A DNA stretch of 64,000 bases, from assembly GCF_058153355.1 (NCBI RefSeq), contig NZ_CM177019.1; one strand, 5' to 3'. Both the position numbers and the translations under genes were made by a program. A model generated the notes under the pieces. That model ran no database searches. It was given only the letters and a program-made list of their open reading frames with translations, and was not told the origin of the DNA. This document shows, one piece after another, positions 26,247-26,484 of this stretch. Each line of letters starts with the position of its first letter. Position 1 is the first letter of the stretch.

Positions 26247-26292
26247 AGCCCATCCTTTGTTATCAACTTGTTATTTGCGTTGATAAAGACAA

Positions 26293-26310
26293 GGCAAGGG
26301 GTATGCCACA
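26293..26310 (-). promoter_or_regulatory. candidate sigma-54 promoter for prpBCDE
   Basis: Minus strand reads TGGCAT-ACCCC-CTTGCC, about 50-65 nt upstream of prpB; GG/GC spacing is one nt off the TGGCAC-N5-TTGCA consensus; adjacent sigma-54 activator PrpR. Confidence 0.4.
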
Positions 26311-26484
26311 ATTGCCTGAATAAAATTAAATGTTTAATTTCAATTTGTTAGAGATAAAATCATGAAGTGATCCGCAAATATGCGTTTCAGTTAACGTTTC
26401 AGGCAATGTTTCACTGCGTTTCATTGCAACAATTATGAAACAAGACTAAACCCAATATTCGGTTTCTTAACTTTGCGGTGCGCT

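Follow-up and report, generated by a model that had tools for sequence, protein, structure and literature searches.

The divergent genes prpB and prpR are separated by a 238-bp gap, which raises the question of which promoter drives prpB and in which register it is to be read. The locus lies in a stretch of 64,000 nucleotides from contig NZ_CM177019.1 of assembly GCF_058153355.1 (hereafter the window), in which the gap corresponds exactly to positions 26247-26484. The initial annotation placed a candidate sigma-54 promoter here, and this reading is supported by the gene context, by conservation across species and by the literature on orthologues. The element is almost certainly the known sigma-54 promoter of prpBCDE under PrpR control (PprpB).

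Gene context and register of the promoter element

The neighbourhood of the gap (lacIZYA, cynRTSX, codBA, prp and yahO/N/K) is the usual one for E. coli, and the gap itself is 95-99% identical to its counterpart in ~5,200 E. coli genomes. The prpBCDE operon occupies 20522..26246 on the minus strand, as defined by the ORFs, NCBIfam equivalogs and the RefSeq annotation of the closest genome. It comprises prpB (methylisocitrate lyase, 25356-26246, with its ATG at 26246), followed by prpC (23933-25102), prpD (22448-23899) and prpE (20522-22408), the last three each assigned from an ORF and an NCBIfam equivalog. All the prp genes in the window are intact, the products of prpB, prpC, prpD, prpE and prpR matched their NCBIfam equivalog models far above the cut-off, and prpBCDE is the transcription unit driven by PprpB.

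On the plus strand, prpR (26485..28071, with the ATG given by RefSeq) encodes the divergent enhancer-binding activator of 528 aa. Its identification as a sigma-54 activator, already proposed in the initial annotation, was borne out by the equivalog match and by the domain order, namely a PrpR_N sensor, a Sigma54_activat AAA+ domain (PF00158, 1e-65) and a Fis-type HTH (HTH_8). The Walker A motif GETGTGK (246), the GAFTGS loop (301) and the Walker B motif TLFLDE (322) are all present, and the sigma-54 activator encoded by the window prpR is complete. Textbooks give the loop as GAFTGA, but among the 63 PrpR orthologues in which a loop could be detected, 60 have GAFTGS, which is therefore the norm of the PrpR family.

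Read directly, the minus strand from 26309 to 26293 is 5'-GTGGCATACCCCTTGCC-3', i.e. TGGCAT-ACCCC-TTGCC, which follows the pattern TGGCA(C/T)-N5-TTGC, and the core promoter 5'-TGGCATACCCCTTGCC-3' spans 26293..26308. On this strand T(-26) lies at 26308, the GG doublet (-25/-24) at 26307/26306, T(-21) at 26303, TTGC (-15 to -12) at 26297..26294 with the GC doublet (-13/-12) at 26295/26294, and C(-11) at 26293. Both doublets had been recognized in the initial annotation, and the element it described is present; its transcription TGGCAT-ACCCC-CTTGCC, on the other hand, contained one surplus C. This slip accounts for the two caveats that came with it, a spacing one nucleotide off and an uncertain register, neither of which holds. 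The GG-to-GC distance is 12 nt, exactly the canonical -24 to -12 spacing, and the register is unambiguous because only a single GC is available. Compared with TGGCA(C/T)-N5-TTGC(A/T) with the doublets one helical turn apart, the element agrees throughout, its sole departure being C instead of A/T at -11.

PprpB lies on the prpB strand, points toward prpB and precedes its ATG (A at 26246) by 47-62 nt, inside 26247-26484 and in keeping with the 50-65 nt first estimated; 48 nt separate the -12 C from the ATG. From sigma-54 promoter geometry, the transcription start (+1) is predicted at 26282 on the minus strand, 12 nt past the -12 C and 36 nt before the ATG, maybe ~2 nt off. The 5' UTR predicted from the sequence covers 26247..26281 (minus strand), and a Shine-Dalgarno AGGA is found at 26256..26253 (minus strand), 6 nt before the ATG. 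A full-text literature search turned up no mapped prpB start site, the original promoter papers being outside its reach.

The orthologous promoters are well documented. In E. coli K-12, GTGGCACACCCCTTGCT is peak OS01 in sigma-54 ChIP-seq with a fold-above-threshold of 17, and its predicted start lies 36 bp from prpB and 19 bp past the motif centre (PMC4591121 Table 1); the EcoCyc status of this promoter in 2015 was 'predicted' (PMC4591121). An RpoN holoenzyme gSELEX peak was also reported in the prpR/prpB spacer (PMC8743547). The K-12 promoter has the same position in the prpR/prpB gap, the same 36-nt distance from the predicted +1 to the ATG and the same enhancer block as the window, with 15 of 17 bases identical.

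PprpB of Salmonella enterica LT2 (Palacios and Escalante-Semerena 2000, 2004; Samuels et al. 2013) precedes the same operon with a divergent PrpR and shares the -24/-12 core and the spacing (TGGCATAGCCTTTGCT), and both sigma-54 binding and the dependence on rpoN, prpR and ihf were shown there. Sigma-54 ChIP-chip resulted in the enrichment of TGGCATAGCCTTTGCTTT upstream of prpB with a ratio of 11, and prpBCDE expression in the wild type exceeded that of the rpoN deletion strain 45-fold when a constitutive activator was supplied; the operon is one of four experimentally established sigma-54 operons in Salmonella (PMC3844500). The differences from the window concern the spacer bases of the element and the length and sequence of the A/T-rich spacer.

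A further likeness is found in the E. coli promoter PatoD (OS21), a sigma-54 promoter of a short-chain acid catabolic operon whose core is very similar (CTGGCACTCCCCTTGCT) and whose distance to the start codon is 35 nt, and which serves acetoacetate and short-chain fatty acid catabolism in an AtoC-dependent manner. Different from PprpB, it is controlled by a two-component response regulator, AtoC, rather than by a ligand-sensing PrpR_N protein; its enhancer is another one and the site is not orthologous.

The allele carried by the window

Compared with K-12 PprpB, the window carries T for C at -21 (26303) and C for T at -11 (26293). The site was scored with a matrix built from 49 intergenic ChIP-seq-bound E. 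coli sigma-54 sites (PMC4591121 Table 1), from which the prpB site was excluded to avoid circularity. The window allele scored 12.3 bits, 2.8 bits below the 15.1 bits of the K-12 allele, and because of these two bases it falls at the 12th percentile of the bound sites. Among 5,426 complete E. coli genomes searched by 28-nt words, none matched a 35-mer spanning both changes, since the close strains differ at either -21 or -11 and every 28-nt word is broken. The nearest strains carry one change each, with TGGCAT..TTGCT in H1 and H2 and TGGCAC..TTGCC in H5.

These data bear on the best surviving alternative, in which an ancestral PprpB has been weakened by T(-21) together with C(-11), so that the promoter is decaying or down-tuned and prpBCDE is poorly inducible. 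It draws on the drop in matrix score, on the rarity of C at -11 (2 of 76 unique orthologue sequences), and on the missing 28-mer match across the stretch, the nearest strains having just one of the two changes. Each base, however, is found singly in natural E. coli, T at -21 is present in half of the orthologues, and TTGCC occurs in the ChIP-bound sites xdhA OS29 and OA05 (PMC4591121). Moreover, 12.3 bits is well above the weakest bound training site (8.0 bits), and the prp genes show no damage. A decayed promoter is accordingly judged improbable. With a score well inside the range of bound sites and TTGCC among them, the window PprpB is expected from its sequence to be functional, possibly somewhat weaker than its K-12 counterpart.

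Enhancer, spacer and repeats of the gap

The predicted PrpR enhancer (UAS) was located at 26383..26442 on the basis of repeats, conservation and the published consensus. It contains GTTTCA at 26384, 26396, 26408 and 26418 and TGAAAC at 26436, including the inverted repeat GTTTCAT-N10-ATGAAAC at 26418-26441. The block in the window matches CGTTTCATGAAACG, the consensus published for PrpR enhancers (PMC4987338 Table 1). In Salmonella the proximal enhancer is a perfect palindrome of this sequence; at the corresponding place in Escherichia, GTTTCA is repeated directly. The block extends from about -102 to -159 relative to the predicted +1, and enhancers typically lie roughly 80-200 bp from the promoter.

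Between the enhancer and the core promoter, an A/T-rich spacer with IHF-like sites was recognized from consensus matches at 26323..26350 (about -41 to -68). The IHF-like sequence TTTCAATTTGTTA at 26338-26350 has one mismatch to WATCAANNNNTTR, overlapping sites are present at 26324-26339, and the spacer also holds the palindrome AAATTAAA/TTTAATTT. Sigma-54 promoters often, though not always, have an IHF site in this position. The IHF pattern is a frequent one, with 73 matches in the window against 54 expected, and the spacer varies in sequence and length between genera. The one-mismatch matches fit the IHF requirement reported for Salmonella, and the spacer is a candidate IHF bend site, its exact position being deduced from the consensus.

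A CRP site has been described in the literature as overlapping the PrpR operator. Within the gap, the closest approach to TGTGA-N6-TCACA departed from it at 4 of 10 positions, and the reported site was not located. Scanning of 26200-26530 for sigma-70 promoters and terminators found neither, and the prpR promoter could therefore not be placed.

The geometry of the gap is relevant to a second alternative, that the site mainly holds a poised, non-productive sigma-54 complex which occludes or roadblocks the divergent prpR promoter instead of driving prpB. Such a role would find precedent in the many E. coli sigma-54 sites that are bound without known transcription, and the prpR and prpB promoters have been described as overlapping and divergent. 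Yet the motif faces prpB at the usual distance from the start codon and lies ~200 bp from the prpR ATG, beyond the enhancer, and the literature shows PrpR- and sigma-54-dependent expression of prpBCDE, which makes a merely poised complex very improbable.

Two perfect inverted repeats were observed in the gap in addition to the elements above. The first, TTATCAAC/GTTGATAA, has 8-bp arms with an 11-nt gap, covers 26260-26286, straddles the predicted +1 and holds a perfect IHF consensus, TATCAACTTGTTA (26261-26273, plus strand). The repeat is kept in Escherichia, Citrobacter and Kluyvera, nearly kept in Pluralibacter, and missing from Salmonella, Pseudocitrobacter and Shimwellia. A hairpin in the 5' UTR was considered for this repeat and rejected, as it folds only with a start 8 nt farther upstream (z = -2.7), a start that sigma-54 geometry does not support. 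RNA beginning at the predicted +1 showed no significant fold (z = -0.13), suggesting that the repeat may be a protein site at the DNA level. The second repeat, ATTGCCTGAA/TTCAGGCAAT, has arms of 10 nt at 26311-26320 and 26398-26407, 77 nt apart, one shortly before the -24 element, the other within the enhancer block. Other E. coli alleles do not share it (the allele at locus L074 and that of E. albertii differ), so it is probably a chance occurrence.

Conservation across species and meaning of the promoter

The motif taken by its strength alone is not significant within the 64-kb window, by either consensus search or matrix. TGGCA-N6-TTGC occurs exactly once in the window, at PprpB, against 1.46 expected. 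The matrix score of PprpB ranks eighth among all window positions on both strands, and simulated sequences gave ~6.8 sites with at least this score per 64 kb, both strands counted. For the 238-nt gap on the prpB strand alone, the expectation calculated from the same simulation is ~0.013. The argument for PprpB is thus one of context and conservation. The top sigma-54 matrix score of the window, 17.0 bits, belongs to CTGGCAAAATTTCTGCA at 61471-61487 on the minus strand, antisense within hyxA (ORF 61109-61870, plus strand), in an accessory region present in ~1,900 of the 5,426 E. coli genomes; an intragenic sigma-54 site of the kind described in K-12 is one possibility, chance another.

Conservation was examined at 80 prpB loci, one per different species, by scanning the prpB strand over 300 nt upstream of the gene. 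The loci came from Escherichia, Citrobacter, Kluyvera, Salmonella, Pluralibacter, Pseudocitrobacter, Shimwellia, Photorhabdus, Xenorhabdus, Providencia, Morganella, Janthinobacterium and other Oxalobacteraceae, Paraburkholderia and Pseudomonas, and the opposite strand and three sets of coding segments served as controls. The strict pattern TGG[CT]A[CT]-N5-TTGC was present in 78 of the 80 species and in none of the 318 control segments (0/80, 0/80, 0/79 and 0/79 in the four sets), which rules out chance. The median best matrix score was 16.4 bits upstream of prpB versus 2.9-6.7 bits in the controls. Across the 78 species, the -12 C lies 40-191 nt from the prpB ATG, with a median of 51.

Positions that had not been used for selection behaved as a sigma-54 promoter would predict, with T at -11 in 58 and a pyrimidine at -27 in 70 of the 76 unique sequences, and the spacer position -19 varies freely and carries essentially zero information. 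At least two enhancer hexamers were found 66-226 nt upstream of the -24 element in 77 of the 78 loci, versus none in the controls. In an alignment of ten enteric genera, conservation between the two start codons was confined to two islands, namely the -24/-12 element and the GTTTCA/TGAAAC block. At the level of sequence, the architecture of enhancer hexamers, variable A/T-rich spacer and -24/-12 core is kept from Enterobacterales to Oxalobacteraceae. One of the two exceptions, a Pseudomonas locus (L078), has neither the motif (6.1 bits) nor a sigma-54-type PrpR and carries a GntR-type regulator directly upstream of prpB, serving as a natural negative control.

The third alternative, in which the motif is a functionless chance match and prpBCDE is transcribed from another promoter in the same gap, e.g. 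a CRP-dependent sigma-70 promoter, can point to the number of equally good matches expected in 64 kb, to the seven window positions that outscore PprpB and to the reported CRP dependence of prp expression, but it is effectively refuted by the same place, strand and spacing in nearly all species and none of the controls, by the binding of sigma-54 to the orthologous E. coli and Salmonella sites, by the empty sigma-70 scan and by the strong rpoN dependence of prpBCDE in Salmonella.

Two groups of loci show the motif apart from a neighbouring prpR. Eleven Janthinobacterium loci (L040, L041, L044-L047, L051, L052, L054, L056 and L057) and a Massilia locus (L076) have the strong motif CTGGCACGGCATTTGCA (19 bits) and belong to the strict-motif set in which hexamers were found in 77 of 78. 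A sigma-54-type PrpR was not detected in the 2.2-kb flanks on either side of prpB at these loci, indicating that the activator must be encoded farther off. In Xenorhabdus kozodoii (L022), prpR is missing upstream of prpB and the motif is kept (18.3 bits); a 453-aa ORF on the opposite strand (14-1375 of this locus) stands in the place of prpR, and an insertion or rearrangement may have displaced the activator gene.

Reviews and biosensor papers state that PprpB needs PrpR with 2-methylcitrate, sigma-54, IHF and CRP, and prpBCDE expression is described in reviews as dependent on prpR, ntrA and ihf. For the window, occupancy by sigma-54, the requirement for rpoN, prpR and ihf, 2-methylcitrate as the signal and an input from CRP are carried over from the literature on orthologues and would be expected to apply likewise. 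Sigma-54 RNA polymerase would bind TGGCAT-N5-TTGC as a stable closed complex that is unable to initiate alone, and the divergently encoded PrpR would occupy the GTTTCA/TGAAAC enhancer ~100-160 bp upstream. The N-terminal domain of PrpR would sense 2-methylcitrate, the product formed from propionate by PrpE and PrpC. The AAA+ domain of the activated protein would then hydrolyse ATP and touch sigma-54 via the GAFTGS loop, with the IHF-bent A/T-rich spacer looping the enhancer-bound PrpR onto the promoter. Opening of the promoter would allow transcription of prpBCDE from a start around 26282, which leaves 36 nt to the prpB ATG.

PprpB is an ordinary promoter that is already known. It is a textbook sigma-54 promoter, which drives the propionate-inducible pPro expression vectors and underlies propionate biosensors, and genome-wide measurements of its sigma-54 occupancy already exist for E. 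coli and Salmonella, leaving little discovery value in the element itself. What is gained is the removal of the doubt about the spacing, a full architecture found to be conserved and an allele combination that deserves a flag, as it could slightly weaken the promoter. If both bases together measurably reduce sigma-54 binding, T(-21) with C(-11) might represent a natural cis-regulatory variant that lowers propionate catabolism in this lineage, a tentative reading that is considered rather unlikely.
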